Origin: Candidatus Hydrogenedentota bacterium
GTDB lineage: Bacteria; Hydrogenedentota; Hydrogenedentia; Hydrogenedentales; JAEUWI01
Assembly: GCA_016791475.1 (NCBI GenBank)
Contig: JAEUWI010000010.1
Location: forward strand, 20,352 to 84,351
Length of the DNA stretch: 64,000 bases
Direction of reading: 5' to 3'
Shown: positions 5,366 to 56,256 of the stretch, one piece after another
Position numbering within the stretch: the stretch's first letter is position 1
How the letters are laid out: every line of letters begins with the position of its first letter
Position numbers and translations under genes: made by a program
The notes under the pieces: model-generated
What the model was told of the DNA's origin: nothing
The model's database searches: none
What the model saw: only the letters and a program-made list of their open reading frames with translations

Positions 5366-6330
5366 TGCGTATCGCTATCGTCGGCAGCGGAAGCTTGAGT
5401 GTGAAGATGCTCCTGCCCCTGCTCGATTCGAAGCACGAGGTGGTCGCGGTTATTCTTGATGGTCGCCACACCAAGGGAATCAAGCGCTGGCTGGAGCCCC
5501 GGCTTGCCCGCTGGTTTCGCGGCGAATACAGCCTCGGCGGTCAGGCCATCAAGTATGATCTTCCCATCTACTACATCGACAAGATGACCGAGGAAGAAGT
5601 CGCGCCGCTCAAAGCGCTCAAGTTGGACCTCATCCTCGTGGGCGGATTCAGCATCATCCTCAAGAAGCCCCTTCTGGATGTGCCCCGGCTCGGATGTGTA
5701 AATACCCACTCCTCTCTGCTGCCCCGGCACCGTGGACCGAATCCCTTCTCCGCCGCCATTCTCGCGGGTGACGCGGAAACGGGCGTAACTTTTCACTGGA
5801 TGGACGAAGACATCGACACGGGCGACATCATTGCCCAGCACAAGATCGCCTTAAACGAGGAATCGACCATGCTGGGTCTCTATCGCGATGCCTGTGAGCT
5901 TGCTGGAAAGAAAGTGGAAGGACTCGTCAACAGCCTCGAAGTGGGGGATGGCCTGCGCCGTCCCCAGTCCACCGAAGCGGCTACTTACGAGAAACGCGCT
6001 CAAGTCGCCGATTCCTGGATTGACTGGTCCGACACGGCCGAAAACATCGAGCGACTCGTGCGCGGCATGTCCCCCCAGCCTTATGTGCGCTTCCGGTGGC
6101 GAAAACACGTCATCCTGGTGCACAAAGTGACCTTCGATCCGCGGCCGGTGAATGCCGCGCCCGGCACGGTGCTGGTCAACCATCCTCTGGTCAAGATCGC
6201 CACGGGGAGCGGTGTCATTATCCTGCGGGTGACCTTCCGCCAGAAGCCCATACCCTGGATCTGGCCCGCCTTCGGCAGCCGGCCCGACGTGGAAGAGATG
6301 CTACCCTCCGGCGCGCCGGGCGCGCCATAA
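5365..6330 (+). CDS. formyltransferase family protein (Fmt/ArnA-like paralog)
   Basis: NTHSSLLPRHRGPNPFSAAILAGDAETGVTFHWMDEDIDTGDII formyl-transferase core; TGATG overlap with dtd. Confidence 0.75.
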   Translation: MRIAIVGSGSLSVKMLLPLLDSKHEVVAVILDGRHTKGIKRWLEPRLARWFRGEYSLGGQAIKYDLPIYYIDKMTEEEVAPLKALKLDLILVGGFSIILKKPLLDVPRLGCVNTHSSLLPRHRGPNPFSAAILAGDAETGVTFHWMDEDIDTGDIIAQHKIALNEESTMLGLYRDACELAGKKVEGLVNSLEVGDGLRRPQSTEAATYEKRAQVADSWIDWSDTAENIERLVRGMSPQPYVRFRWRKHVILVHKVTFDPRPVNAAPGTVLVNHPLVKIATGSGVIILRVTFRQKPIPWIWPAFGSRPDVEEMLPSGAPGAP

Positions 6331-6352
6331 TGCGCGCAGGAACCGCCCCACC

Positions 6353-7411
6353 ATGATCTCCATCATCATTCCCGCGTTCAACCAGCTTGGCTACACACGC
6401 CAGTGCATCGCCAGTATTCTGGAAAATACCGAGGGAGAATATCGACTGATTCTGGTCGACAATGGCTCCACCGAAGCGGTCTACGAATTCTTCTGCGCGG
6501 TTCCCGGCGCCGTGCCCATTCGCTCCGAAACGAACCTCGGTTTCGCCGCCGGTGTCAACCTGGGCCTCCGCGTGGCCGAGGGCCATGTCCTACTGTTGAA
6601 CAACGACACCCTCGTCCCCAGGGGCTGGCTCACCGGCCTCTGCGCCGCGCTGGAGAGCGCCCCGGACATCGGCGTGGTCGGGCCCATGAGCAATTACGTC
6701 TCCGGGAGCCAACTGATTCCCGAGTTGCGCTTCGAAAGCCTTGACGACATCAACGCCTATGCCGAGGAGCGGCGCGCACAGCATGGGGGCCGTCTTCGCG
6801 ACGTGGCACGCCTCGTGGGATTCTGCATGCTCATCCGCGATCGGGTTGTGGCGGAAGTCGGGCTCATGGACGAAGCCTTCGGCCTGGGCAATTTCGAAGA
6901 CGATGACTACTGTGTCCGCGTCCTGCGCGCGGGCTACCGCCTCTGCGTGGACGAGGCCAGTTTCGTCTTTCACTATGGCAACCGGACTTTTCACGCCCTG
7001 GGCCTGGTCGAAGGACGATGGGATGCCCTGCTGGAAGAAAACGCCGCGCGCTTCGGCGCCAAATGGAACCTGAAGCCCGAAGACCGGCTCGATGAATACC
7101 GCGAAGCACTCCAGCTCAACCGCAAGGCGGGCGAGGCCCTGGCGCAGGGCGATCTGGTCGGGGCCATCCGGGGTTACCGCGACGCGCTCCTGCTCGCGCC
7201 CCAACTGGCCCGAAGCCACAACGATCTCGCCGTGGCCCTGTGGCAGGCCGGCGCGGGCGAAGATGCCTTCGAACGCCTCAAGGCGGCCCTGCGCCTCGAT
7301 CCGGAATTTTCCGAAGCGAGGGAAAATCTCCTGGACGTTGGCCGGGCCCTCGGCAGGGAAGAGGAGGCCCGCGATGTTCTCGGGTCGACGAAAGCGGAGG
7401 ATGATCCATGA
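6353..7411 (+). CDS. family 2 glycosyltransferase with C-terminal TPR repeats
   Basis: ISIIIPAFNQ...LILVDNGS...GFAAGVNLG GT2 motifs; C-terminal TPR-like repeats. Confidence 0.8.
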   Translation: MISIIIPAFNQLGYTRQCIASILENTEGEYRLILVDNGSTEAVYEFFCAVPGAVPIRSETNLGFAAGVNLGLRVAEGHVLLLNNDTLVPRGWLTGLCAALESAPDIGVVGPMSNYVSGSQLIPELRFESLDDINAYAEERRAQHGGRLRDVARLVGFCMLIRDRVVAEVGLMDEAFGLGNFEDDDYCVRVLRAGYRLCVDEASFVFHYGNRTFHALGLVEGRWDALLEENAARFGAKWNLKPEDRLDEYREALQLNRKAGEALAQGDLVGAIRGYRDALLLAPQLARSHNDLAVALWQAGAGEDAFERLKAALRLDPEFSEARENLLDVGRALGREEEARDVLGSTKAEDDP

Positions 7412-8013
7412 GTATTACGGTGCGGGAATACCTGCCGGAAGACGAAAGCGAATGGTTGAAGGTTCACGCCATCATCATGAGCATCTCCCACGCGTGGAAC
7501 TACTGCATTCAGGAGCGTCCGGATTACACGGGCTACGTGTCCACCCGCCTCGTTGCCGTGGACGGCGACCGCATCATTGGGTTGATCGATGTGCAGTACG
7601 AGAACGAGCCCGGCGAACTCTGCTTTCAGAAAGATTCGCGCGGCGGTTATGTGCTGGAGTTTGGACGTCTTCCCGAATACGGTGGCGCGGGACTCGGCAA
7701 GCAGTTGATGGACGCCGCCGCGGCGGACGCCAGGCGGCTCGGTTTCAATCGCCTGGAGTACTGGAGTCAGGATCGGCGCGCGCAACGCTACTACAGGCGG
7801 CTTGGACTGAAGGAAATCAGCAGGCACTATCGCTTCCGCTTCAAACCGCCCCAGGCGATTCAGGACGAGTTGATGAAAGACTGCGTCGGTGTGGAATATC
7901 TATACGGCGCCTGTGTGCCCGAAGAGTGGCCCCTTGTGCGGGAGAAGTACGACGTCATCACCAAGCCCCCCCTGGAGCCCCATCTCTGCGTGGGGTTCGA
8001 CGTGCGTTTCTGA
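7408..8013 (+). CDS. GNAT family N-acetyltransferase
   Basis: acetyl-CoA binding region RLPEYGGAGLGKQLMDAAAADARRLGF; ATGA overlap with GT2 gene. Confidence 0.7.
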   Translation: MSITVREYLPEDESEWLKVHAIIMSISHAWNYCIQERPDYTGYVSTRLVAVDGDRIIGLIDVQYENEPGELCFQKDSRGGYVLEFGRLPEYGGAGLGKQLMDAAAADARRLGFNRLEYWSQDRRAQRYYRRLGLKEISRHYRFRFKPPQAIQDELMKDCVGVEYLYGACVPEEWPLVREKYDVITKPPLEPHLCVGFDVRF

Positions 8014-44382: not shown

Positions 44383-44407
44383 GCCTGAAGCCTGAAGCCT
44401 GAAGCCT
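44383..44407. repeat. (GCCTGAA)3.6 heptanucleotide microsatellite
   Basis: seen directly, between convergent genes. Confidence 0.6.
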
Positions 44408-45822
44408 CACCACGGCGCGCCGATCAAATACTCCAGGATGGCCGCGGCCTGATGCTTGTCTTTCGCGGCGCGCAGGTGTTCGAGTTTGAATTCCATAACA
44501 TTGCGCATGCTTTCCAGCATCTCCAGTATGGAAACCATCTCGCTGCCGGAAGCATATTCGGCCTGCAAGCCTTCCAGGATGGTCTCTTCGCGCTTGAGCA
44601 GATCTTCGCCATAGAGCGCCATGCGCCGGGTGGCGTCATTCCACTGAAATGAATTCTCCCTTGCCTCGGTGGCGAGCATGCGCTGTTCATCCTCCTGGTG
44701 CCAGCGGGTGGCGTTGGCCATGTGTTCCTTCTCGGCAACGCCCGCCCTGATCTTCTTCTTCCATATCGGCAGGTTGATGCCTATCGAGACGGTCAGCTCG
44801 TCGGTCACGCCCCGTTCAGTTTCCTTGAACTTGAAGGTCTCATACAGGTCGATTGCGGTCCCGCCCGTGAACTCTTCGTGACCGGCGGCAATCATGCCGA
44901 GGTCCCGGTAAGTCTGAAGTCGGCCGGGCTCGAAGGGGTCGGTTCGGGCCGCACGCATGTTGCGATCGAGCGCGTAGTCGACGCCGATCGTGATGTCGGG
45001 GTACTTCATCCGCCGCGCCAACTCCACGTCCTTTTCCTCCGCATCGAGGGTATGATCGAACATGCGCAGGGATGGGTTGTTGCTCTTGATGGCGGCTTCG
45101 AGAGATTCCTGGGTGGGCGGCTCCGGGGGGAACTCGGCGGCCTGGGGCGCGGCGATGGGCGCGTCCTGGGGACGGTTCAACGCCGCATTCAGCGCGGCAC
45201 GGCTCGCGGGCTCCATCTGTTCCAGCTCGCTTCGCATATTGTTCATCTTCGCCAACTCCTGCTCCATCCGGAGCACTTCGGCCTCGGATGACCAGCCGGA
45301 CTCATACTGCGCGCGGGCCACCTCGACGGACTCCGCCATGATGCCCGCCTGATGACCCACCAACTTAAGCTCTTCCATCAGGAAGGCGTAGTCAAAGTAG
45401 GCCATCTTCACTTCGCGAAACACCGCGTTGCGCTGTTCGTGCAGGTGGGCCAGCCAATACTCGGCTTCGGCGGCGGCCTTTTCCTTCCGCACCGCTCGGG
45501 TGCCGAACCAGGGAAATTTCTGCTCCAGATCCACCATGAAATAGCTCTCGTCGGTGACGATGAACTGAGTGTAGGTGAACATGGGATCTTCCAGCGCGCC
45601 CGCCTGGGGGATTCGCTCCAGCGCCGCGCGCCAGTCTTCGTAGTGCGCCTTGAGGAGCGGGTGGTTCTCCGCTGCTTCCAGCAGATAACCCCGGAGTTCC
45701 TCATTGCCGGCGAAAAACGCGGGCGCTTCCTCCGGTGATGCTTCGTCGGCGCGGGGAGCATCTGACCAGCCCGCCGCCAATACGGCGATCATCAACAGAG
45801 AGACGAGTTTTAGGTTGCTCAT
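44407..45822 (-). CDS. TolC-family outer membrane efflux protein (CusC/CzcC-like)
   Basis: signal peptide, two-repeat OEP architecture, ATGA-coupled to RND gene. Confidence 0.75.
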   Translation of the reverse strand: MSNLKLVSLLMIAVLAAGWSDAPRADEASPEEAPAFFAGNEELRGYLLEAAENHPLLKAHYEDWRAALERIPQAGALEDPMFTYTQFIVTDESYFMVDLEQKFPWFGTRAVRKEKAAAEAEYWLAHLHEQRNAVFREVKMAYFDYAFLMEELKLVGHQAGIMAESVEVARAQYESGWSSEAEVLRMEQELAKMNNMRSELEQMEPASRAALNAALNRPQDAPIAAPQAAEFPPEPPTQESLEAAIKSNNPSLRMFDHTLDAEEKDVELARRMKYPDITIGVDYALDRNMRAARTDPFEPGRLQTYRDLGMIAAGHEEFTGGTAIDLYETFKFKETERGVTDELTVSIGINLPIWKKKIRAGVAEKEHMANATRWHQEDEQRMLATEARENSFQWNDATRRMALYGEDLLKREETILEGLQAEYASGSEMVSILEMLESMRNVMEFKLEHLRAAKDKHQAAAILEYLIGAPW

Positions 45823-48800
45823 GGGGCCTCCGTCCTTTCTTCGTTCCAGTGATGACGCTGGCTGATGGACATGTAGATGTAGTAGATGACGGGGTAGAAG
45901 ACGAGTTCGATCAGGAAGCCCACAAGAAGGCCGCCAATCATGGGCGCGGCAATGCGGCGCATCACATCGGCGCCGGTGCCTTCGGCCCAGAGCAGCGGAA
46001 CCAGACCGATAAAGGCCGACGCGACGGTCATGGCTTTGGGCCGTATGCGCATGACCGCGCCGTCATAGACCGCGGCCCAGAGATCTTCGCTGTTGCGCAT
46101 GCGCCCTTCCTGCTTGAAACGTTCGAAACTGGTGTCCAGGTAGAGGAGCATGACCATGCCTGTTTCCGCGTCGAGACCGGCGAGGGCGATGATCCCAATG
46201 ACCACGGCGAGGGACAGGTTGTAATCCAGCGCATAGAGGAACCAGAAGACGCCGATCATGCTGAAGGGACATGCCAGGACGATAACAGCCACACGGAACC
46301 AGCTTCGTGAACTTACATACAGCAGCAGTGTGATGATGACGAAGGTGGCCACGGTGGCGGCAAGCAGCCGGGGTATGGCCTTCTCCCAGAACTCAAACTG
46401 GCCGGAGAATACAAGGGTGTAACCCGGAGGCAGTTTCATCTCGCGGGCGACCACCTCGCGCGCTTCGGCAATGTAGCCGCCCAGATCGCGCCCCGCCACG
46501 TCCACATAGATCCAGGCGGTGCGCTGGGCGTTCTCGCTCCGGATCATGGGGGCTCCGGGGTTAATCTGCATTTTCGCCAGTTGGCCCAGGGGGATCTGGG
46601 CGCCCGTGGGCGCGGGCACAAGCAGCCGCTCGAGGGCGGGCAGGTCATCGCGTAATTCGCGGGCGTAACGCAGGTTGAGGGGGTAACGCTCCAGACCCTC
46701 CACCGTCGTGGTAATGTTCATGCCGCCGATGGCCGTCTGGATCACGTCCTGCACATCGCCCACGGTCAAGCCGTGGCGCGCCACCACTTCCCGATCGATA
46801 TCGAAATCGAGATAGTAGCCGCCGAGCGTGCGCTCCGCGTAGGCGCTGGTGGTTCCGGGTATATTGCGAACGGCGTTGGCGGCCTGCTCCGCGAGGTCGC
46901 CGAGGACCTGCAAATCGGGCCCCATGATCTTGATACCCACGGGCGTCTTGATGCCGGTGGCCAGCATGTTTATCCGGTTCTCGATGGGGTAGGGCCACGC
47001 ATTGGCCACACCGGGCAACGAAGTGGCGGCGTTCAGTCCGGCGTGTTGCGTACCGTCCGCGTCGATCCATCCGTACTTCAACTCCTCCATCGTGATGGGG
47101 CGTTCGCTGGGCCAGAATCGATAAAATGGCTTGCGGAGGATCTCGGGCCAGCCGTCATGAAACTGGTTCAGGGTGCGCTTGCGCCAGGCTTCGCGATCGG
47201 GGTTGAGCTGCACCACGGTTTCGATCATGGAAAGGGGCGCGGGGTCCGTGGCCGAGTCCGCGCGGCCGATCTTCCCGTGGACGGAGACAACTTCGGGAAA
47301 GGTCATGATCATCTTGTCGGTCTGCTGCAGCAGTTCCCGGCTTTTCATGACGCTGATGCTCGGGTCGGTGGTGGGCATGTAGAGCAGATCACCCTCGTCC
47401 AGAGACGGCATGAATTCGGACCCGATTCGGGTCATGGGATACCACGTGGAGGCCAGGGCGATGAAGGCGATGATCACCACGCTCCACCGATAGCGAACCG
47501 AGAAGTGGAACAGGGGACTGTACATGCGCTGGAGTATGTTGCTGATGGGGCTGTGCTGCTCGTGGATGATGCGCTGGGGGACCAGAAGCATGCCGGCAAG
47601 CACGGCCCAGCCTATGGCGATGTGGAGCCGCCACGGCGCGAATTCTTCGGAGTAGCCCGCTGCGAGCCACAACATGCCGCCCGGCACGAACATGGCCGAG
47701 AGGGTGATGGCCAGATTGCGGCGCCAGCCCCATTCTTTGGGCAGGACACGCGCGGAAATGAAGTAGTACATGAGCACGGGGATGATCGTGATGCTCAGGA
47801 TCGAAGCGGCGGCCATGGCGGCTGTCTTGGTGAAAGCCAGGGGATGGAAGAGTCTTCCCGCTTCTCCGCCGAGGGCAAAGACGGGGATAAAGCTCACGGT
47901 GATGATGAGGAGCGAAAAGAAGAGCTGGGGGCCCACTTCCTGGGCCGCTTCGAGAATGATGTCGAATCCCGGCCTCGGGGCTTCGCCGCGCTTGACCGCG
48001 TCTTCATCCCGATCCAGATGCTTGTGGCCATTCTCCACCATGACCACGGCGGAGTCCACGACCACGCCGATGGCGATGGCGATGCCGCCAAGGGACATGA
48101 TGTTGGCGTTGATGCCGCAAAGGTGCATGATAAGGAGTGCAACCAGAACGCTGGAGGGCACGACGAATACGGCCACCAGTTCACTGCGGGCGTGGAGCAG
48201 GAAAAGGATGCACACCAGCCCCACCACAATGATTTCTTCGATCAGCGTGCGTTGGAGCGTCTGAATGGAGCGGTTGATCAGCGCGGAGCGATCATAGGTG
48301 GGGATCACTTTGACGCCGGGCGGCAGACCGTCTTCCAATTCAAAGAGACGATGTTTTACGTCCTTGATCACCTGGTACGCATTCTCACCGAAGCGCGCGA
48401 CGATCACCGCGCCGGCGGCCTCGCCGATGCCGTTGAACTCGCCCACGCCGCGCCGGGCTTCACCACCCACCTGAAGCGTGGCCACGTCGCCCAGGAGCAC
48501 AGGAACACCGCCCTCGCCGAGGCCTACGGGCACTTTGGCGAGATCGTCGAGGCCCTTGAGGTAGCCGCGGCTGCGCACCATATACTCGTTTTCACTCAGC
48601 TCGACCACGGAACCGCCCACATCGTTGTTGGACATTTCAATGGCTTCGCTGATTTCGCCGAGGGGGATGTTATAGGCCTGGAGCTTCTGCGGATCGAGCA
48701 CGACCTGGTATTGGCGCACATAGCCGCCAATGGGCGCGACTTCGGACACGCCATCCACCGCCGTCAGGGGGTAGCGGAGATACCAGTCCTGAAGGCTCCG

Positions 48801-49430
48801 GAGCTGCGCGAGATCCTGATTGGCGGGAAGCAGTTCCTTGCCCGTGATCGGGCACGTTCCGGGCTCTTCGAAGGCGCGGACGCGTTCCAGGAGTTTCTTT
48901 CGGTCCGCCGGTGCCTTCTCCGGGTCGGCGTACCACGTGTTTTGTTCCTTATCGTGCCAGAGACCGGCGGGATGGTCCGGGGAGTAGTAGCCTGGATAGA
49001 GCACATACTGGTAAACCCAGCCCACGCCCGTCGCATCAGGCCCCAGCTTGGGCTCCACGCCTTCCGGCAGGCGATCCCGCGCGAAGTTCAGGTATTCCAG
49101 CACGCGGCTTCGGGCCCAGTAGATGTCGGTGCCGTCTTCAAAGAGCACATAGACGAAGGACTGCTCGAACATGCTGAAGCCGCGCACGGCGGTGGATCCG
49201 GGCACGGACAGCATGGCGCTGGCCAGTGGATAGGTGACCTGATCGTCCACCACTTGGGGATTTTGTCCGGGGAATTCCGTCGTGACGATGACCTGCACGT
49301 CGGATAGATCGGGGATCGCGTCCAGACTCAGGTTGAAGACACTCCAAATGCTCATGGCCACCAGCGCCGCGGTCAGCATGGCGACAAGGAGGCGATTCTC
49401 CATGGAAAGTCGGATGATATGGGCGATCAT
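45819..49430 (-). CDS. CusA/CzcA-family heavy-metal efflux RND transporter
   Basis: MIAHIIRLSMENRLLV...LDAIPDLSDVQVIVTTEFPGQ HME-RND N-terminus; ~1200 aa, 12 TM; start at internal ATG giving ATGA overlap with MFP gene. Confidence 0.88.
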   Translation of the reverse strand: MIAHIIRLSMENRLLVAMLTAALVAMSIWSVFNLSLDAIPDLSDVQVIVTTEFPGQNPQVVDDQVTYPLASAMLSVPGSTAVRGFSMFEQSFVYVLFEDGTDIYWARSRVLEYLNFARDRLPEGVEPKLGPDATGVGWVYQYVLYPGYYSPDHPAGLWHDKEQNTWYADPEKAPADRKKLLERVRAFEEPGTCPITGKELLPANQDLAQLRSLQDWYLRYPLTAVDGVSEVAPIGGYVRQYQVVLDPQKLQAYNIPLGEISEAIEMSNNDVGGSVVELSENEYMVRSRGYLKGLDDLAKVPVGLGEGGVPVLLGDVATLQVGGEARRGVGEFNGIGEAAGAVIVARFGENAYQVIKDVKHRLFELEDGLPPGVKVIPTYDRSALINRSIQTLQRTLIEEIIVVGLVCILFLLHARSELVAVFVVPSSVLVALLIMHLCGINANIMSLGGIAIAIGVVVDSAVVMVENGHKHLDRDEDAVKRGEAPRPGFDIILEAAQEVGPQLFFSLLIITVSFIPVFALGGEAGRLFHPLAFTKTAAMAAASILSITIIPVLMYYFISARVLPKEWGWRRNLAITLSAMFVPGGMLWLAAGYSEEFAPWRLHIAIGWAVLAGMLLVPQRIIHEQHSPISNILQRMYSPLFHFSVRYRWSVVIIAFIALASTWYPMTRIGSEFMPSLDEGDLLYMPTTDPSISVMKSRELLQQTDKMIMTFPEVVSVHGKIGRADSATDPAPLSMIETVVQLNPDREAWRKRTLNQFHDGWPEILRKPFYRFWPSERPITMEELKYGWIDADGTQHAGLNAATSLPGVANAWPYPIENRINMLATGIKTPVGIKIMGPDLQVLGDLAEQAANAVRNIPGTTSAYAERTLGGYYLDFDIDREVVARHGLTVGDVQDVIQTAIGGMNITTTVEGLERYPLNLRYARELRDDLPALERLLVPAPTGAQIPLGQLAKMQINPGAPMIRSENAQRTAWIYVDVAGRDLGGYIAEAREVVAREMKLPPGYTLVFSGQFEFWEKAIPRLLAATVATFVIITLLLYVSSRSWFRVAVIVLACPFSMIGVFWFLYALDYNLSLAVVIGIIALAGLDAETGMVMLLYLDTSFERFKQEGRMRNSEDLWAAVYDGAVMRIRPKAMTVASAFIGLVPLLWAEGTGADVMRRIAAPMIGGLLVGFLIELVFYPVIYYIYMSISQRHHWNEERTEAP

Positions 49431-51229
49431 GGCGCGGCCTCCGCCATGGCCGGGACGGCGCGCTCCACGGTGCCGCATTGTTTCATTTCATCGCGATAAT
49501 AAGGGTTGGCCACTTCTTCGCCGGGCTGAATCCACGAGCCTGGGGCCATGGGGCAGTGGATGATGAAGAGATTGGGCGTGACCGCGCCCGAGGGTGCAAA
49601 CTGACCCGCGATGGCGATCATGGCGTCGCTCAGGGGACCGAATTTTTCGCGCTGCACCTCCAGGGGTTGATCGTCCATGGCCTGCGCGGCGCCAAGCAAT
49701 GTTGCCGTGGCGTCCCTCGCGGGGTGGGCTTCATTTGCGATCAGGGTTTCCGCCGCCGCGATGAGGGGCTTAAGATCGAGGGGCTTGTCTTCGCCCGGCG
49801 CGCCGCCAAGGATTGCGCTGAGCTTGAGATACTCCACATAGAGCGCATCGGTTTCGGGCGATGTCTCCGTGGTCTCGGAAGTGACCTCTTCCATGGGCGG
49901 CGCGGCGCTATCATCGAGCATGGGCGTGGCGCTATCGTTTGTCAGGAATTTCTGAACCGCTTCGCGCAGGCGGCTTTCCGTGTCCAACAGGAACTGGCCG
50001 CTCGTGACCACGGCGTCGCCCTCATTCAGGCCCGCGAGGATCTGCACATACCCATCGCTCCCCTGATGTCCCAGTTGCAGTTCCTTGAGCTGAAAGTGGC
50101 CTTTGCCCCCGTCGACAAAAGCGATCTGACGCGCGCCCGTGTTGATGATCGCTTCGCGTGGCGCCAGCAGCGTGTCGTCTCCGAGGATGACGTCCAGGCG
50201 GGCTGTGGCGTACATGCCGGGGCGCAGGCGCATGCCGGGATTGTGAATGGCGAGGCGAGCGGACGTCGTGCGCGTCTCCATGTTCACATGGGGATAGATA
50301 AAATCGATCACACCGGTGACGGGCTCGCCGGGCGCGGCATCGGCCGAGGCGGTCACCGGCTGCCCCAGCGCGATGAAGGGCAGGTCCATCTCGAATAGGG
50401 CGATGTCCATCCATAGGAGATCGTGATCGACGATCTTGAAGAGGGTCGCGCCCGCTTCCACGCCCGCGCCTTCCGACACCATCTTTTCGAGCACATGGCC
50501 CTCCGCCGTGCTCAGAATCGTGACCGTGCGCGGGGCCTCATTGCGCTCGGCGTAGTCCGCTATTTGCTTCGGCGTCAGGCCCCACAACTCCAGTCGTTTT
50601 GCGCTGGTGTTGGCCAGCGCCTGGCCGTGGCCCTCGCGGTTTTTCAACGAGATCAGCTCGCTGATGGCCTGGTGAATTTCCGGGCTGTACAACTCAAAGA
50701 GCGGGTCGCCCGGCGCGATGTACATGCCCTCGGTGTCCGCGTGAAGTTTTTCGATCCACCCGGAAACGCGCAGATTGACCTCGTGGACATTCGGCTCGGC
50801 CTCTTTGAGGAAGCCCGCCGCGCGGATCTCGCGAAAGAGCGGACCCATCCGCACTTTCGCGGTGCGCACGCCCATGTTCTGCACCACGGCGGGGTCGATC
50901 TGAACCGCGCCGCTGGTGTGGGTCGCGCCCGGACCCTGCTTAAGGGGCTCCAGGGCCATGTGGCATATGGGGCAGACGCCGGGCTCTTTCTGGATTACCT
51001 GGGGGTGCATGCTGCAGGTCCAGAGTTGCGCGGTCGATTCTCCACCGGGCTCAGCGGCGGCCTCTGGCGCACCCTCCCGATGCAGGCCCAGGTGATGGGC
51101 GATGGGTTGTCCCCAGCGCGTGCCAAGGGCGATGCCAGCCAGCAAGGCGATGGCCAGTAGAATAAGGGTAATACCGCCGGAACGGTGACCAGCGGGGGGA
51201 AGACCGCTGCGGCTCTTGATTGGATTCAT
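49427..51229 (-). CDS. CusB/CzcB-family periplasmic adaptor (MFP) with N-terminal CxMHP...PGxCPxCxMxL metal-binding domain
   Basis: CSMHPQVIQKEPGVCPICHMALEP; beta-barrel/lipoyl/MPD regions. Confidence 0.85.
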   Translation of the reverse strand: MNPIKSRSGLPPAGHRSGGITLILLAIALLAGIALGTRWGQPIAHHLGLHREGAPEAAAEPGGESTAQLWTCSMHPQVIQKEPGVCPICHMALEPLKQGPGATHTSGAVQIDPAVVQNMGVRTAKVRMGPLFREIRAAGFLKEAEPNVHEVNLRVSGWIEKLHADTEGMYIAPGDPLFELYSPEIHQAISELISLKNREGHGQALANTSAKRLELWGLTPKQIADYAERNEAPRTVTILSTAEGHVLEKMVSEGAGVEAGATLFKIVDHDLLWMDIALFEMDLPFIALGQPVTASADAAPGEPVTGVIDFIYPHVNMETRTTSARLAIHNPGMRLRPGMYATARLDVILGDDTLLAPREAIINTGARQIAFVDGGKGHFQLKELQLGHQGSDGYVQILAGLNEGDAVVTSGQFLLDTESRLREAVQKFLTNDSATPMLDDSAAPPMEEVTSETTETSPETDALYVEYLKLSAILGGAPGEDKPLDLKPLIAAAETLIANEAHPARDATATLLGAAQAMDDQPLEVQREKFGPLSDAMIAIAGQFAPSGAVTPNLFIIHCPMAPGSWIQPGEEVANPYYRDEMKQCGTVERAVPAMAEAAP

Positions 51230-51377: not shown

Positions 51378-51764
51378 TCAGCAGCGGAAAGACTGGGTGC
51401 GCAGGATCAACGGCGGGGGAGATGTCGAATCCTGCTGAGCAATGGCGATGGCAAAGCCTTCGGGCATCTTGGGCAGCAATAGAGCCGCAACGGAAACGGA
51501 TGCCGTCCAAGCGGGGTGGTGATTGTCTTCCGGTCCGGGGTTCGCAGGCCGGGAGGCAGCGGGATTGGCCGCAGCCTGAGTCACCGTCACATCGCAGCAG
51601 GCACGGGAGGCATCCATGACATCGCACGCGGGTTGGGATTCCGCGGCGCAACAACACACGCTGGATACTTCGCCCGACATGCGGCAGGCAAAGGAAACCG
51701 CGCCGGCAGCCCAACCGTGGGCAGCCAGGGCAAGAATCAGAGCGATGTGTATAATTTGTTTCAT
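51378..51764 (-). CDS. small secreted Cys-rich protein (128 aa; CCC, CC and single Cys clusters), candidate periplasmic metal-binding accessory
   Basis: signal peptide MKQIIHIALILALAAHGWAAGA; ...FACRMSGEVSSVCCCAAESQPACDVMDASRACCDVTV; immediately upstream of MFP gene on same strand; coding-like GC3. Confidence 0.5.
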   Translation of the reverse strand: MKQIIHIALILALAAHGWAAGAVSFACRMSGEVSSVCCCAAESQPACDVMDASRACCDVTVTQAAANPAASRPANPGPEDNHHPAWTASVSVAALLLPKMPEGFAIAIAQQDSTSPPPLILRTQSFRC

Positions 51765-52079
51765 GACGCTATTGTAGCAGAGGGTTGGGCCGGACGCAAT
51801 GGACAGTCGAATATACATTCTCTCAACCGTGCGGAACTATGTAATCGGTGTAGAAAAAGAGCTCTGGACCACGGGTTGGACGGATGGGCACGAATGAGAT
51901 GGTCGATTCTGGCGTCACACAAGTCGGCCTCGTCAGGTCCAGACTTCTTTCGGCGTGGGTGTTGCGAAAGCGAGAAGACACGCTTGTTCTTCCGTCAGCT
52001 ATACGACTTCGACGGCCCGAGCGGAAAATTCTTCCCACAGACCGGTGAGGGGCTGTGGGAGGATCATCTGCTACGCCCA

Positions 52080-52478
52080 TCAGTCGCTTCCCGCATGGCC
52101 GTCGCCGCCACTTTCGGGCATATCTTCCTGTTGAACGCGCAGATCGGGTCGGTAACGGTGTCTTTTGTCTGAGTCCTCGGCACACAACGAGGCAAAACTT
52201 CGGTGATAGCGCTTTCCGGGTTGGCGCTTTTCGCGCAAAGCCCATCGAACGAGGAGGAACGCCGCGACCAGGAAAATAACTATCGATACGCTACCTTCCG
52301 TCGAGATCTGGGACTCAAATTGGACGTCGGGCGGAGCCTCGGAGGAATCCGTCACGGCCTGTGCTACGACGAAAGGAAACAGGACACCGCCGTGTTCAGA
52401 TGCAATAATCGCCATCCCCAACAGCGCGGTGGCCATAGGGAAGAGCATTGAGCTACACCGAAGGAGTCGTTCTCTCAT
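52080..52478 (-). CDS. hypothetical small membrane protein (2 TM)
   Basis: ORF track 52080..52766 trimmed to internal start; low-GC region; weak support. Confidence 0.3.
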   Translation of the reverse strand: MRERLLRCSSMLFPMATALLGMAIIASEHGGVLFPFVVAQAVTDSSEAPPDVQFESQISTEGSVSIVIFLVAAFLLVRWALREKRQPGKRYHRSFASLCAEDSDKRHRYRPDLRVQQEDMPESGGDGHAGSD

Positions 52479-52587
52479 CGTAGTCGATATGATACGCAGC
52501 ATGACATTCAATCTCCGCCGGTCACAATCCACTGACGATCCGTTGGGACTTGAATTCGGAATAGGGTTAGATCGTATCGCCCTACCC

Positions 52588-52950
52588 TCACCACCAGCTA
52601 TTATCATCGTTGCGGGGGTTATTCCATTCATCCCGCGTGCGTTGCTCCTCCTCCGAGGCGAAGATGTTGCCGTGAAAGCGATGCGCGACAACGAGCAGTA
52701 TGGCGATGGACAGTAGTACCACAGAATAGACGACGAGAGCCCTTCCCAGTAGCTCCCATCCGGCACTCAGTTCACGAGGTGGAGGGTGGTCATTATCTCT
52801 CGACTGTGCAAATGCCTGTCCGAGACTTTCGGGAACCATGGGCGCTTCTGTTGTTGCGACCAATACCGCCGAAATACATATGACTACACGATAGGCAAGG
52901 GACTTCTTGTCCCGTGCAGGGGATTTGTCGCCGGAGGAAGTTCTCATTTT
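52588..52950 (-). CDS. hypothetical small membrane protein (2 TM)
   Basis: ORF track 52588..52959; directly downstream of GRDP-like gene on same strand. Confidence 0.35.
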   Translation of the reverse strand, partial: KMRTSSGDKSPARDKKSLAYRVVICISAVLVATTEAPMVPESLGQAFAQSRDNDHPPPRELSAGWELLGRALVVYSVVLLSIAILLVVAHRFHGNIFASEEEQRTRDEWNNPRNDDNSWW

Positions 52951-52962
52951 GTGCCGCACGAA

Positions 52963-53850
52963 TCAACTGCCGCACCCGCCGCCACATCCACCACCGCCGC
53001 AACCACTTCCGCACCCGCTATCGCCTCCACAACCCGATCCTCCATCGCCGCTGCTTCCGCAACCGAACCAGGAACTGCACCCGCCACCGCCACCGCCACC
53101 ATCTTTGCCCTCGCGCTTTCCTCGTGCGGCTCCCGCTACGGAAACCAGCGCGCCAGTAAGCACAATTCCCCCACACACCGTTATCAGGGCAACCTGGGGT
53201 GTCGTTAACGTGTCCTGTTCCTTTGTTGAGTCCTTGTCAACGGCTTCGGTGCGCTGCGCGTGGGTATCCAGAAAGAGAGGAGGGTGGCCGGTGGAAATCG
53301 CGAGGCCCAGCACGGACAGCATCCCCGCGACCAATGTGCCTGCGACGACACGTCTCGCGCGAACCCGGGGTATTACCCAGAATCGGGCAGGCTGGAGCCA
53401 CACGCCCTGATTGCGTCGCGCAAAGCGCTCCTTCGCATCGGGCCAGATGTCGCGCGGGGCCACCTCGCCGAAGGTCTGTTCGTAGAGCGCCAGGGTGTAT
53501 TCATACTGGCCTTCGAAGCGCTCGCCTTCGGCCTTGCCGCCTTTGGTGGGGCCGTGGTGGAGGTAGCGCCCGAACAGGGCGTCGCACCATTCATGGTAGG
53601 ACTCGGTGTAGACGATGTGGAGGTGCCAGGCCTGGTCCACGGCTTCGCTGGGCGTCACGTGGCGGTCGGAAATTGCCGCCAGGATGAGGAAGCGGGTGTA
53701 TTCCCGCACGACGCGCTCGGTGAAGGGCCGGGTCCAGCCGTATTGTTCGCGCTGGAGGCGGGCGGTAAAGTTGAGCGCGGCGTCGGGGTCGTTGAGTTGC
53801 AGGGCGTCCGCTTTTGCGATAAGTTCCGGCAGGGTCGGGGGTTGGATCAT
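52963..53850 (-). CDS. GRDP-like (DUF1399-type) domain membrane protein with two TM helices and a C-terminal Cys/Gly-rich metallothionein-like tail
   Basis: AWHLHIVYTESYHEWCDALFGRYLHHGP; TM1 VVAGTLVAGMLSVLGLAI, TM2 VALITVCGGIVLTGALVSVAGAA; tail GGGGGGGCSSWFGCGSSGDGGSGCGGDSGCGSGCGGGGCGGGCGS; GGGAG RBS before ATG at 53850. Confidence 0.6.
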   Translation of the reverse strand: MIQPPTLPELIAKADALQLNDPDAALNFTARLQREQYGWTRPFTERVVREYTRFLILAAISDRHVTPSEAVDQAWHLHIVYTESYHEWCDALFGRYLHHGPTKGGKAEGERFEGQYEYTLALYEQTFGEVAPRDIWPDAKERFARRNQGVWLQPARFWVIPRVRARRVVAGTLVAGMLSVLGLAISTGHPPLFLDTHAQRTEAVDKDSTKEQDTLTTPQVALITVCGGIVLTGALVSVAGAARGKREGKDGGGGGGGCSSWFGCGSSGDGGSGCGGDSGCGSGCGGGGCGGGCGS

Positions 53851-54000
53851 GAGGTTTCTCCCTCGTCGTTTGTTCCCATCGTTCGTTGTGGGAGTATACC
53901 CGAATTGGGGAGGAAATATTCGCAGGTTGCGAGGCTCGATTGCGGGGACGGCAGGGGCGAGCGGTGGCAATGGCTATGATGAAGCTTGCTGTGGGATTTA

Positions 54001-54137
54001 CCCCCCCTACCCCCCCGCAAGCGGGTGGACCAAGCGGTTCACTTTGACACGTGTGGTTCCCCCCGCAAGCGGGTGGACCAAGCGGTTCACTTTGACACGT
54101 GTGGTTCCCCCCGCTTGCGGGGGGCCACGGGGGTAGG
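54001..54137. repeat. tandem 48-nt repeat (2 copies plus partial) of CCCCCCGCAAGCGGG hairpin + TGGACCAAGCGGTTCACTTTGACACGTGTGGTT, bracketed by inverted CCCCCTACCCCC / GGGGGTAGG
   Basis: seen directly; homologous to element at 36411..36499. Confidence 0.7.
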
Positions 54138-54211: not shown

Positions 54212-56032
54212 CTAAAACAACTTCTCGACGTAGACCCGGTCGCCGTCTTTGAGGTGGGCGGAGGCCATAAACTCGGGAGCCATGCGCGCGGTGGTTCCGT
54301 TGCCGGGATCCGCGGCCTTGAGGTGGATGCTGTGGAGTCCGCCGAGCCACCAGCGCTGATCGCAGACGTAGAGCAGATCGCCGTGTTCGGCGGCGAGGGT
54401 GTGGAGGTGTTCGCTGGAAAGCTGGACCACCTCTTGGCCTTCGAGGGCCGGGTCGGATTCGACGGTGAGGTAGACGAGCTTGCCTTCGCGACGGTTGATT
54501 TTTCCGCCTTTGAACTGCTCCATGGCGTGGAGCTGCGTGCCGTTGACGAGGCCCGCGATGGCCTCGATGGGCTGGGGGCGCGTCGCGAGGGCGACGACGA
54601 CGCCGAGGGCGCCGCTGGCGACCAGGCCGAAGAGGGCGCGGGTGAAACCGTAGCTGTCGGGGCCCATGCCGAAGGAGAAGGCGCTCAGCAGCCACCCGTC
54701 GAAGGGCGCCAGGGTGGAGAGGAACACGAGCAGACTACCGCCAATGAGGGTAGCCAACGCGGCGGGGGCGTTGTAGCGCCTCCAGAGGATGCCGAGCAGG
54801 ATCGCCATGACGATGGGCGGTGTGATGGCGGCGGTGAATTTCGCGTGGGCCTGATAGACCGTGTCGCCCTGGAAGACGGGGACAAGGGCAAGGCCGATGG
54901 CCGCCACGGTAAGGCTGGACAGGCGCGCGACCTTGAGGTAGTGCTGATCGTGCGCGCCCTTCTTGATATAGGGCTGGTAGATGTCGTTCACAAAGACCGC
55001 GCTCGCCGCGTTGATCAGGGTGTCCGCCGTGCTCATCAGGGCGGCCATAAGCGCGGCGAGGACGAAGCCGAATACGCCGGGTCCGCAGAGAAAGTGAGAG
55101 GCGAGGATGAAGGCCTCGTTGGCCTTTGCTTCGAGATCGCCATTCTCAACCAGCGCCCGGGCAGCCCAGCCGCCGCCGCTCACGGTGATGGCGGCGAGGG
55201 GCGACAGAATCAGAATCCAGCAGATGGCCATTTTCTGGCCGTCTTTGACGCTGCGCATGGCGAGGAAGCGCATGATGATACCCTGATTCATCAGCACGAA
55301 GGCGCCCGAATTTGCGAGTCCATCCTGGGCGTAGATGCCGATGAAGCTGAATTTGTCGGGCGCGTTGAACTCGGAGAAGATGTAGCGGTGGGACTGTGGG
55401 AGCAGGGCCCAGAAATCCACGAAGCCGCCGACGTGGGCGACGCCGGCGAGGAAGATGCCGACGCCCACGACGAGGAGCGTGATGCCCTGTACGAGGTCGG
55501 TCATGATGACGGAGGTCTGGCCTCCGGCGAAGACATAGAAGGTGACGGCGACACAGGCGAGGGCCGCTCCGGCGAAGATGTTCCAGCCGACCATGGTGTT
55601 GAGGGCAACGCCGAGGGTGAGGAGGTTGATACCCACGTAGCCCACGAGGTAGATGAGAATGATGGTCGTGGCCACGGCGCGGGGGATACGTCCGAATCGG
55701 CGCTCAAAGTATTCCGGCACGGAGTAGACGCGCTGGTAATAGATGATGGGCAGCCAGACGAGCAGGAGGATGGGCATCCAGAACCAGTCATTGAGGTAGG
55801 TCTGGCTGCTGCTGATACCGTAGCTGAAGCCGGCCTCGCTGTACTTTACGAAGCTGTAGCTGCCGACGGTGGTTGCCGTCGCGGAGAAAGCAATGACCCA
55901 CCAGGCAAAACGCTGGCCGCCGAGGTAAAAGTCTTTCGTGGTGGTGCTGTACTTGCCGAAGAAGACGCCGAAGCCCACCACGGCGACGAAGTAAATCAGC
56001 AGGACCGCGACGTCCAGGGGGGTTCCGATCAT
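54212..56032 (-). CDS. sodium:solute symporter (SSS) family transporter
   Basis: MIGTPLDVAVLLIYFVAVVGFGVFFGKYSTTTKDFYLGGQRF N-terminus; ~13 TM; ATGA overlap with upstream small membrane gene. Confidence 0.85.
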   Translation of the reverse strand: MIGTPLDVAVLLIYFVAVVGFGVFFGKYSTTTKDFYLGGQRFAWWVIAFSATATTVGSYSFVKYSEAGFSYGISSSQTYLNDWFWMPILLLVWLPIIYYQRVYSVPEYFERRFGRIPRAVATTIILIYLVGYVGINLLTLGVALNTMVGWNIFAGAALACVAVTFYVFAGGQTSVIMTDLVQGITLLVVGVGIFLAGVAHVGGFVDFWALLPQSHRYIFSEFNAPDKFSFIGIYAQDGLANSGAFVLMNQGIIMRFLAMRSVKDGQKMAICWILILSPLAAITVSGGGWAARALVENGDLEAKANEAFILASHFLCGPGVFGFVLAALMAALMSTADTLINAASAVFVNDIYQPYIKKGAHDQHYLKVARLSSLTVAAIGLALVPVFQGDTVYQAHAKFTAAITPPIVMAILLGILWRRYNAPAALATLIGGSLLVFLSTLAPFDGWLLSAFSFGMGPDSYGFTRALFGLVASGALGVVVALATRPQPIEAIAGLVNGTQLHAMEQFKGGKINRREGKLVYLTVESDPALEGQEVVQLSSEHLHTLAAEHGDLLYVCDQRWWLGGLHSIHLKAADPGNGTTARMAPEFMASAHLKDGDRVYVEKLF

Positions 56033-56256
56033 GGCGTGACCTCCCCGCCGACAAAGGGCAGCCAGAAGGTGAAGGCGCAGGAGAAGAAGAGGAGGAGGGC
56101 GTAGCCGCCCAGCAGGACCCCCAGAAGCTTGCGGTGGTCGCCCAGCTTCAGGTCCAGATAGCCGCTGGAAAGGCCAGCCCAGAGGCCGACGAGTCCCAAC
56201 AACCCGCCGATGCCAAACTGACACAAAATGGGCCAGACACGCGCCATGTCAACCAT
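56029..56256 (-). CDS. small membrane protein accessory to SSS symporter (DUF997/YhdT-like)
   Basis: 75 aa, 2 TM; GGAGAGG RBS; translationally coupled to symporter. Confidence 0.55.
   Translation of the reverse strand: MVDMARVWPILCQFGIGGLLGLVGLWAGLSSGYLDLKLGDHRKLLGVLLGGYALLLFFSCAFTFWLPFVGGEVTP

Follow-up and report, generated by a model that had tools for sequence, protein, structure and literature searches.

Introduction

Many genes for TIGR04222 proteins, mostly in Actinomycetota, adjoin MNIO genes, and subsets of the encoded proteins were proposed by Leprevost and coworkers to be MNIO substrates (PMC12452194). In plants, AtGRDP2 was described by Ortega-Amaro and coworkers as a protein with DUF1399 and a C-terminal glycine-rich domain with interspersed Cys of the consensus [CG]GGGCGG[GC], and plant GRDPs were tied to stress tolerance (PMC4299439). 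The Cys-rich membrane peptide associated with FeoB has a motif that is taken to bind iron (PMC8749426). Peptides of the type Gly-Cys-Gly bind Zn2+ as well as Fe2+, and they also stabilise iron centres of the mononuclear, [2Fe-2S] and [4Fe-4S] types (PMC9126146). Here, a gene for a membrane protein with a Gly/Cys/Ser tail was analysed in a stretch of 64,000 nt (the window) from a Candidatus Hydrogenedentota bacterium (assembly GCA_016791475.1, contig JAEUWI010000010.1, positions 20,352 to 84,351 of the forward strand). An earlier reading of the window (the original prediction) had described the product of this gene, hereafter the window protein, as a membrane protein with an unusual, thiol-rich and metallothionein-like tail on the cytoplasmic side.

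The window protein is a short-form member of PF27765, a known but functionally uncharacterised family. In this family the N-terminal domain (N-domain) and the tail are inherited together, being fused directly, fused via a TIGR04222 module or encoded by two adjacent genes. The most likely role of the window protein is that of a membrane-tethered thiolate ligand or substrate working with its GRDP-like domain.

Results

Gene and protein layout

The gene, its putative ribosome binding site and the parts of its product are listed below in window positions; transmembrane is abbreviated to TM, AlphaFold2 to AF2 and the predicted local distance difference test to pLDDT.

52963..53850, minus strand: whole coding sequence of 295 aa plus stop, with ATG at 53850 and TGA at 52963-52965
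53858..53862, minus strand: Shine-Dalgarno-like GGGAG, 7 nt 5′ of the ATG, read from the sequence
53371..53850, minus strand: GRDP-like N-domain, residues 1-160, all-alpha, PF27765/UCP032817-like, profile-level homologue of plant DUF1399, predicted cytoplasmic
53596..53637, minus strand: invariant core motif D72-Q-A-W75-H76-L-H78-x-x-Y81-T-x-x-Y85 (invariant alignment columns)
53536..53559, minus strand: conserved loop H98-H99-G-P-T-K-G-G (invariant columns), aligning with plant 'EHDDTD..KG'
53290..53367, minus strand: TM1, AF2 helix 162-187, hydropathy core 168-186, preceded by RVRARR
53203..53289, minus strand: predicted extracytoplasmic loop, residues 188-216, short and net-acidic, with a THAQ(R/S) motif as in close homologs
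53119..53202, minus strand: TM2, AF2 helix 217-244, hydropathy core 220-238
53101..53124, minus strand: basic juxtamembrane stretch RGKREGKD, residues 243-250, a positive-inside signal
52966..53100, minus strand: disordered Gly/Cys/Ser tail, residues 251-295, pLDDT <50, with the family-wide conserved terminal core CGSGCGGGGCGGGCGS

The protein is exactly MBL7646011.1, which is recorded as 'hypothetical protein' from a Candidatus Hydrogenedentes metagenome-assembled genome (MAG). Since the GGGAG site and the N-termini of homologs with 81-88% identity fit the ATG at 53850, a TTG-initiated open reading frame (ORF) reaching 53970 is unlikely. Against Pfam, the sole match of the protein was below threshold and lay in the TM region (Trp_oprn_chp, E 0.013); the comparison with NCBIfam gave nothing at E≤1, and no Rfam match was found around the gene at E≤0.1.

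Conservation of the Gly/Cys/Ser tail

The tail (residues 251-295) reads GGGGGGGCSSWFGCGSSGDGGSGCGGDSGCGSGCGGGGCGGGCGS and is composed of 26 G, 7 C, 8 S, 2 D, 1 W and 1 F, which gives 41 G/C/S residues out of 45 (Gly 58%, Cys about 16%). Its seven Cys are placed at spacings of 5, 9, 5, 3, 4 and 3 residues, and GGGGCGGGC is found at the C-terminus. On re-reading of the sequence, the tail string and the basic stretch after TM2 that the original prediction had quoted proved exact, and its term thiol-rich is justified by these seven Cys.

The tail is real and conserved, and it is present in nearly all full-length relatives. The original prediction had considered that it might be absent from orthologs or not conserved in them; among 120 homologs listed from the 2041 of a first search, 118 carry at least three Cys in the last 30 aa. 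Because the word index of that search could favour tail-bearing proteins, the search was redone with the N-domain alone (full HMMER, residues 1-165, E≤1e-3), which gave 9,242 clusters at 50% identity. The strict tail was present in 88 of 135 new top representatives and a weaker tail with two Cys in about 9, and most of the tail-less entries look truncated or fragmentary. Across phyla the tail is kept from 88% down to about 35% identity, with G292, C293 and G294 as invariant columns of a 75-sequence alignment and a family core of the form GCGGGGCGG(G)CG(G/S/D). In 205 family tails, 2-4 residues separate the Cys; the spacers are 72% Gly and 16% Ser, and CC was found in 2 and CxC in 5 of these tails. 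Two terms of the original prediction are not upheld by these data: with CC and CxC almost absent, Cys spaced by 2-4 Gly/Ser, its nature as a disordered appendage of a 295-aa membrane protein and no metallothionein match in Pfam, the tail is not metallothionein-like in the sense of family membership, and with 9,242 clusters, at least 600 species, tails on nearly all full-length members and such tails already published (PMC12452194, PMC4299439), it is not unusual.

At the nucleotide level, the tail draws on each of the four Gly codons and on both codons for Cys. Tandem Repeats Finder reported a 20-nt repeat under the Gly7 run, (CCGCCA)3 or (GGTGGC)3 on the coding strand, and nothing else. Comparison of the last 45 codons with locus L001, which encodes an 88%-identical homolog, revealed 12 synonymous and 3 non-synonymous differences, and the tail is therefore under purifying selection in this frame; the remaining two reading frames give unrelated sequence. 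A microsatellite or frameshift artefact, the second doubt raised in the original prediction, was rejected on the basis of the mixed codons, the limitation of the repeat to the Gly7 run, the synonymous excess and the unrelated other frames.

Homology of the N-domain

PF27765 ('UCP032817-like') is carried by the 2041 homologs, some of which are named 'glycine-rich domain-containing protein' by NCBI, and the membership of the window protein was established by transitivity via the precomputed annotation of these homologs. In phmmer comparisons with the 120 listed proteins, all of which have precomputed PF27765, E-values ranged from 1e-177 to 1e-41. The motifs D-x2-W-H-L-H-x2-Y-T-x2-Y (72-85) and H-H-G-P-T-x-G-G (98-105) are present in the window protein and invariant in alignments of 75 and 59 sequences, and the family feature of one or more TM segments followed by a Gly/Cys tail with the core GCGGGGCGG(G)CG is found in it as well. 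R31, E50, Y51, D72, W75-H76-x-H78, Y81, Y85, H99, Y116, Y123 and R142 are the invariant polar residues of the N-domain. N-domain, TM hairpin and Gly/Cys tail are common to the window protein and the bacterial PF27765 proteins, with 81-88% identity to P0001-P0003 and 35-55% to hundreds more; nothing of substance distinguishes it from them, and it represents the short form from Candidatus Hydrogenedentes. PF27765-type N-domains occur in at least 600 species of Verrucomicrobiota, Planctomycetota, Proteobacteria, Bacteroidota, Abditibacteriota, Armatimonadota and Hydrogenedentota. No mention of PF27765 was found in the literature searched.

For the relation to plant GRDPs, the window protein was compared with PF07173 (gathering score 22.7 bits) and gave no match at E≤1. 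Weak matches to this model were seen for 17 of 75 relatives, among which P0068 passes the gathering score at 23.1 bits; its VDQxWHLHLxYTxxY aligns with the end of the model. Plant GRDP sequences were retrieved with a plant-type motif (42.8 bits against PF07173) that served only as bait for real sequences, and the retrieved sequences are genuine fragments of at most 132 aa. The bacterial and plant GRDP profiles were aligned by hhalign with a probability of 95.9% and an E-value of 5.1e-9 over 88 columns. Plant counterparts exist for D72, W75, H76, H78, Y85, H99, T102, G105, T119 and F127-G128, and the core motif of the window protein corresponds to plant 'DIDLIWHTHQLHPxSY'. Judged by this profile comparison, the N-domain is homologous to plant GRDP/DUF1399 and a member of a GRDP-like superfamily. 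The plant consensus [CG]GGGCGG[GC], as published in PMC4299439, reads as the same motif as the bacterial tail core.

Plant GRDP1 and GRDP2 thus share with the window protein a homologous N-domain core with the motif WHxH..Y...G..L.H..T...G......T...E.TFG and, according to the published description (PMC4299439), a C-terminal glycine-rich domain with interspersed Cys. They differ in that they are about 790 aa long, have no TM hairpin and contain about 550 residues between domain and tail. The putative RNP-1 motif of the plant proteins (KGSCFLPM-like) is not present in the 295-aa window protein.

Domain architectures

Three architectures of the family were distinguished. In the short form, to which the window protein belongs, the N-domain leads directly to the TM hairpin and the tail (about 250-300 aa). 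In the long form (about 480-520 aa), a TIGR04222 membrane module (102-111 bits) is inserted between N-domain and tail. The split form was found in 8 of 78 loci (Verrucomicrobiota, Sphingomonas) and consists of a TM-less GRDP-like ORF of about 175 aa followed by a TIGR04222 ORF of 278-349 aa (118-141 bits) with the same tail. By a crude ORF finder, the GRDP-like ORF in these loci measures about 170-300 aa, with about 175 aa in the majority of them, and the TIGR04222 ORF adjoins and sometimes overlaps it.

Around 5950-7520 of each locus: split form in L011, L013, L015, L019, L033, L047, L052 and L054

Fusions and fissions such as these are classical evidence that two parts, here domain and tail, are functional partners.

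The TIGR04222 domain (NCBIfam, threshold 43 bits) is absent from the window protein, P0013 and P0062, and the low-complexity Gly/Ser/Cys C-terminal region of TIGR04222 type is present in the window protein. The likeness to TIGR04222 proteins therefore lies in the same C-terminal tail and in the long and split relatives that contain the domain, while the window protein has a simple TM hairpin in place of the multi-TM module. Two further differences concern the proteins described in PMC12452194, whose tails are predicted there to be periplasmic and here, for the window protein, to be cytoplasmic, and many of whose genes adjoin MNIO genes, none of which was found near the gene of the window protein. 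ADB18956, the exemplar of that report, was not found among the long forms.

Membrane topology and structure

AF2 modelling with a 75-sequence alignment yielded an all-helical N-domain (pLDDT >90), the helices 162-187 and 217-244 and a tail with pLDDT <50, and by hydropathy two TM cores were located at 168-186 and 220-238. The two TM helices support the membrane protein with a TM2 that had been predicted originally. A structure prediction of the N-domain alone, proposed there as a check, resulted in a confident all-helical domain (pLDDT 92.8, AF2); no resemblance to solved structures was found.

On average, 98 short-form homologs have 3.8 K+R in the 15 aa that lead up to TM1, 1.1 in the loop of about 17 aa and 4.4 in the 15 aa that follow TM2; no signal peptide was found in the short form. 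Because of this positive-inside pattern and the missing signal peptide, a topology with both termini in the cytoplasm is predicted. Exactly two TM helices in the short form mean that the tail and the 160-aa N-domain must face the same compartment, and a cytoplasmic N-domain is supported by the N-domain ORFs of split forms, which have neither TM segment nor signal. From the sequence we infer that the tail probably lies on the cytoplasmic membrane face beside the N-domain, in agreement with the original prediction.

Genomic neighbourhood

The flanks of 78 loci from different species, with 104 flanking ORFs, were surveyed for recurrent neighbours. No protein cluster was present in more than 8 loci, the largest one being the split TIGR04222 ORF, and no Pfam family occurred more than 4 times among the 104 flanking ORFs. 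As no cluster or family is widespread in the flanks, the GRDP-fused branch appears to work without a dedicated neighbour. No MNIO (PF05114; MbnB_TglH_ChrH/DUF692) was detected among 30 window ORFs scanned against Pfam, which included all non-overlapping ORFs of 200-430 aa except two ORFs with low GC3, nor beside P0002, P0013, P0062, P0087 and P0102 according to precomputed Pfam annotation. MNIO and YcaO are not among the recurrent families in the flanks of the 78 loci. MNIO was rejected as partner on the grounds of this absence from the window, from the surroundings of five diverse homologs and from the recurrent families of the 78 loci.

Genes close by in the window encode an SSF symporter, a YfhO-like protein and a resistance-nodulation-division (RND) system of Cus type; there is no feoB. 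The Cus-type RND operon is located 1.7 kb downstream on the same strand, as it is in L001 and L021, and its region comprises a conserved 146-aa Cys-rich ORF and genes for an outer-membrane factor, a CusA-like RND pump and a CusB-like protein that contains a heavy-metal-binding domain. A family-wide functional link to the operon was rejected, as the adjacency is already lost in L003 (45% identity, Hydrogenedentes MAG). Since it is confined to the closest relatives, the neighbourhood reflects lineage synteny only. The following features of the surroundings were recorded as well.

44407..51229, minus strand: CusB-like, CusA-like and OEP genes
51378..51818, minus strand: 146-aa ORF directly upstream of these genes, start probably MKQIIH..., with a signal-peptide-like N-terminus and the Cys-rich segment CRMSGEVSSVCCCAAESQPACDVMDASRACCD
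52042..52949: window-specific segment of about 0.9 kb, located between the conserved region 5′ of the 146-aa ORF and the stop of the tail gene
54011..54121: 48-bp tandem repeat, 2.3 copies, the two full copies identical, 96% matches over the array
54212..56224, minus strand: SSF sodium:solute symporter, directly upstream in the window, L001, L003 and L021

The 146-aa ORF is without Pfam or NCBIfam match, has 75% identity in L001 and 90% in L021, and may encode a periplasmic metal-binding accessory of the efflux operon. The gap that matches the segment 52042..52949 measures about 160-210 bp in L021 and L001. GC content is 55% in the wider interval 51819..52962, which includes the segment, compared to 61% for the window, and no inverted repeats were found in the segment. 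Two ORFs of this segment, 52588..52959 and 52080..52766 (both minus strand; 123 and 228 aa), were considered as paralogous hairpin proteins and rejected, having neither homologs in related loci nor a family match and being located in window-specific DNA. The 48-bp repeat is intergenic, lies between the SSF symporter gene and the Gly/Cys-tail gene and occurs nowhere else in the window. In L001 and L003 a small ORF of 75 aa precedes the SSF symporter; the SSF synteny is lineage-limited and was not seen in other phyla. A family member was also present in L068 (CAXQOB010000104.1), a 4.4-kb contig labelled as Nitrosopumilus sp. MAG, and this member on an archaeon-binned contig could be due to contamination in the binning or represent a rare case in archaea.

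Discussion

For the role of the tail we tentatively favour, as possible rather than probable, that its thiolates, working together with the GRDP-like domain, bind an Fe-S cluster or a thiophilic metal. The reduced Cys thiolates of the flexible tail would provide a multidentate ligand for the metal ion or cluster, and a His/Asp/Tyr-rich pocket of the domain would cooperate by loading, sensing or processing what the tail holds. The tail would be held at the inner membrane face beside the domain, and the protein would act alone, without dedicated partner genes. Chemical precedent for this comes from the metal and cluster chemistry of Gly-Cys-Gly peptides (PMC9126146), and the TM-plus-tail layout is like that of the FeoB-associated peptide (PMC8749426).

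Several points weigh against this proposal. Metal binding is a prediction for the family, the CC/CxC grammar of metallothioneins is missing from the tail, and the strict Gly between the Cys suggests recognition by an enzyme over simple chelation. No metal-homeostasis gene was found as a conserved neighbour, and the adjacency to the Cus operon is limited to the close relatives L001 and L021 and is absent in L003 and 78 other loci. The topology was derived by rule, from hydropathy and the positive-inside rule; in the long forms a marginal fifth hydrophobic segment makes the side of the tail ambiguous, and a published AlphaFold-based prediction placed TIGR04222 tails in the periplasm (PMC12452194).

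A rather less probable explanation, although the strongest of the alternatives, is that the Cys or Gly-Cys units of the tail are a substrate for modification rather than a ligand in their native state. They would become heterocycles, thioamides or thiooxazoles, in the manner of microcin B17, methanobactin or bufferins. The enzyme would be the GRDP-like domain in cis, which would then represent a novel type of Cys-modifying enzyme, or an unlinked protein, and the product a membrane-anchored chelator or redox group. Compatible with modification are the many invariant polar residues of the N-domain, as in an active site, the strictly kept Gly spacing and the match of some tails, below threshold, to the model 'YxzE-like putative bacteriocin'. 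The likeness of the tail to the Gly/Cys/Ser-rich core of microcin B17 was also counted in its favour. Of the Cys proteins that lack a signal peptide and are encoded directly upstream of MNIO genes, about 40% are TIGR04222 proteins with such tails, and these were proposed as MNIO substrates (PMC12452194). The partner of the tail-bearing membrane module is either MNIO, according to the literature, or a GRDP-like domain that is fused to it or encoded next to it, and this partner swapping suggests analogous roles for MNIO and the GRDP-like domain. On the other side, MNIO was missing from the 30 scanned window ORFs and from the surroundings of the five homologs, MNIO and YcaO were not recurrent in the 78 loci, the GRDP-like fold is unlike any known enzyme, and DUF1399 proteins are without known catalytic activity.

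A bolder proposal, which we regard as unlikely, is that domain and (Gly2-4-Cys)n tail form an ancient self-contained module of two parts that extends from bacteria to plants, its parts being fused, split or hundreds of residues apart. In such a module the domain would be an unrecognised enzyme or scaffold acting on the cysteines of its own tail, by metal or Fe-S assembly or by conversion, independently of MNIO and YcaO.

It is improbable that the tail is a redox or anchoring element, in which reversible disulfides, within one molecule or between molecules, would serve the reporting of oxidative stress or oligomerisation, or S-acylation would fold the tail onto the membrane. Several close Cys on a flexible tail at the inner membrane face would suit such an element, as would the link of plant GRDPs to stress tolerance (PMC4299439). 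However, a simple switch needs no 5-8 Cys with conserved Gly spacing and a terminal motif. Moreover, bacteria are not known to S-acylate strings of cytoplasmic Cys.

Still more doubtful is a periplasmic tail that would act as an extracytoplasmic metal buffer like bufferins, perhaps in cooperation with Cus-type efflux. It would agree with the AlphaFold-based topology cited above (PMC12452194) and with the Cus-type RND operon 1.7 kb downstream in the window and in L001 and L021, but the two TM helices, the lack of a signal peptide, the strong positive-inside flanks and the soluble, signal-less N-domain of split forms are against it, as is the loss of the Cus adjacency outside these close relatives. 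Finally, the reading of the tail as a neutral stretch of low complexity, or as an artefact of annotation or of a frameshift, for which the high GC content and the Gly7 run on a short hexanucleotide repeat might speak, is refuted by the conservation across phyla with invariant G292, C293 and G294 and by the synonymous excess and mixed codons.

Among other Cys-rich systems, the FeoB-associated Cys-rich membrane peptide resembles the window protein in its layout, with a short Cys-rich tail behind a single TM helix, and TM2 plus tail of some relatives match models of this type almost end to end. These matches are below threshold (19-21 vs 27 bits and 24-35 vs 40 bits), the FeoB-peptide-type families are stand-alone proteins of 44-65 aa, and for the window protein no match to their models and no feoB nearby were found. 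Metallothioneins and phytochelatins share the Cys-rich, low-complexity character and the potential for multidentate thiolate chemistry; the tail of the window protein differs in being membrane-tethered and part of a larger conserved protein without family match to them. A metallothionein is a small soluble protein of CC, CxC and CxxC motifs, compared to a membrane protein of 295 aa. To the microcin B17 precursor (McbA) and other cores of ribosomally synthesised and post-translationally modified peptides there is a likeness in composition and in the G-C-G and G-S-C grammar of the tail. In contrast to these, the window protein has no leader peptide and no adjacent YcaO/McbBCD or MNIO genes, and its tail is not a small secreted peptide. 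The window protein is thus not a TIGR04222 protein, not a metallothionein, not a member of PF12669 or PF25184 and not demonstrably an MNIO substrate.

In the literature searched, neither the bacterial-plant conservation of the domain-tail pair, nor the fused and split architectures, nor the missing MNIO linkage in the GRDP-fused branch, nor the cytoplasmic placement of the tail was found stated. Within PF27765 the tail is ordinary, and the interest of the window protein lies in a large and tractable family. This family is very large and functionally uncharacterised, and its plant relatives are implicated in stress tolerance and development. The analysis offers testable claims, namely that domain and tail are a functional pair, that both are cytoplasmic in short forms, that there are no dedicated partner genes and that MNIO is not the general partner. 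As the minimal version of the module, the short form is a convenient entry point for the biology of GRDP/DUF1399 proteins and of TIGR04222 tails. If the proposal of a self-contained domain-tail module were true, the published periplasmic topology of TIGR04222 tails would have to be revised, and if the domain indeed acts on its own tail, this would be the first molecular function for DUF1399/GRDP proteins.

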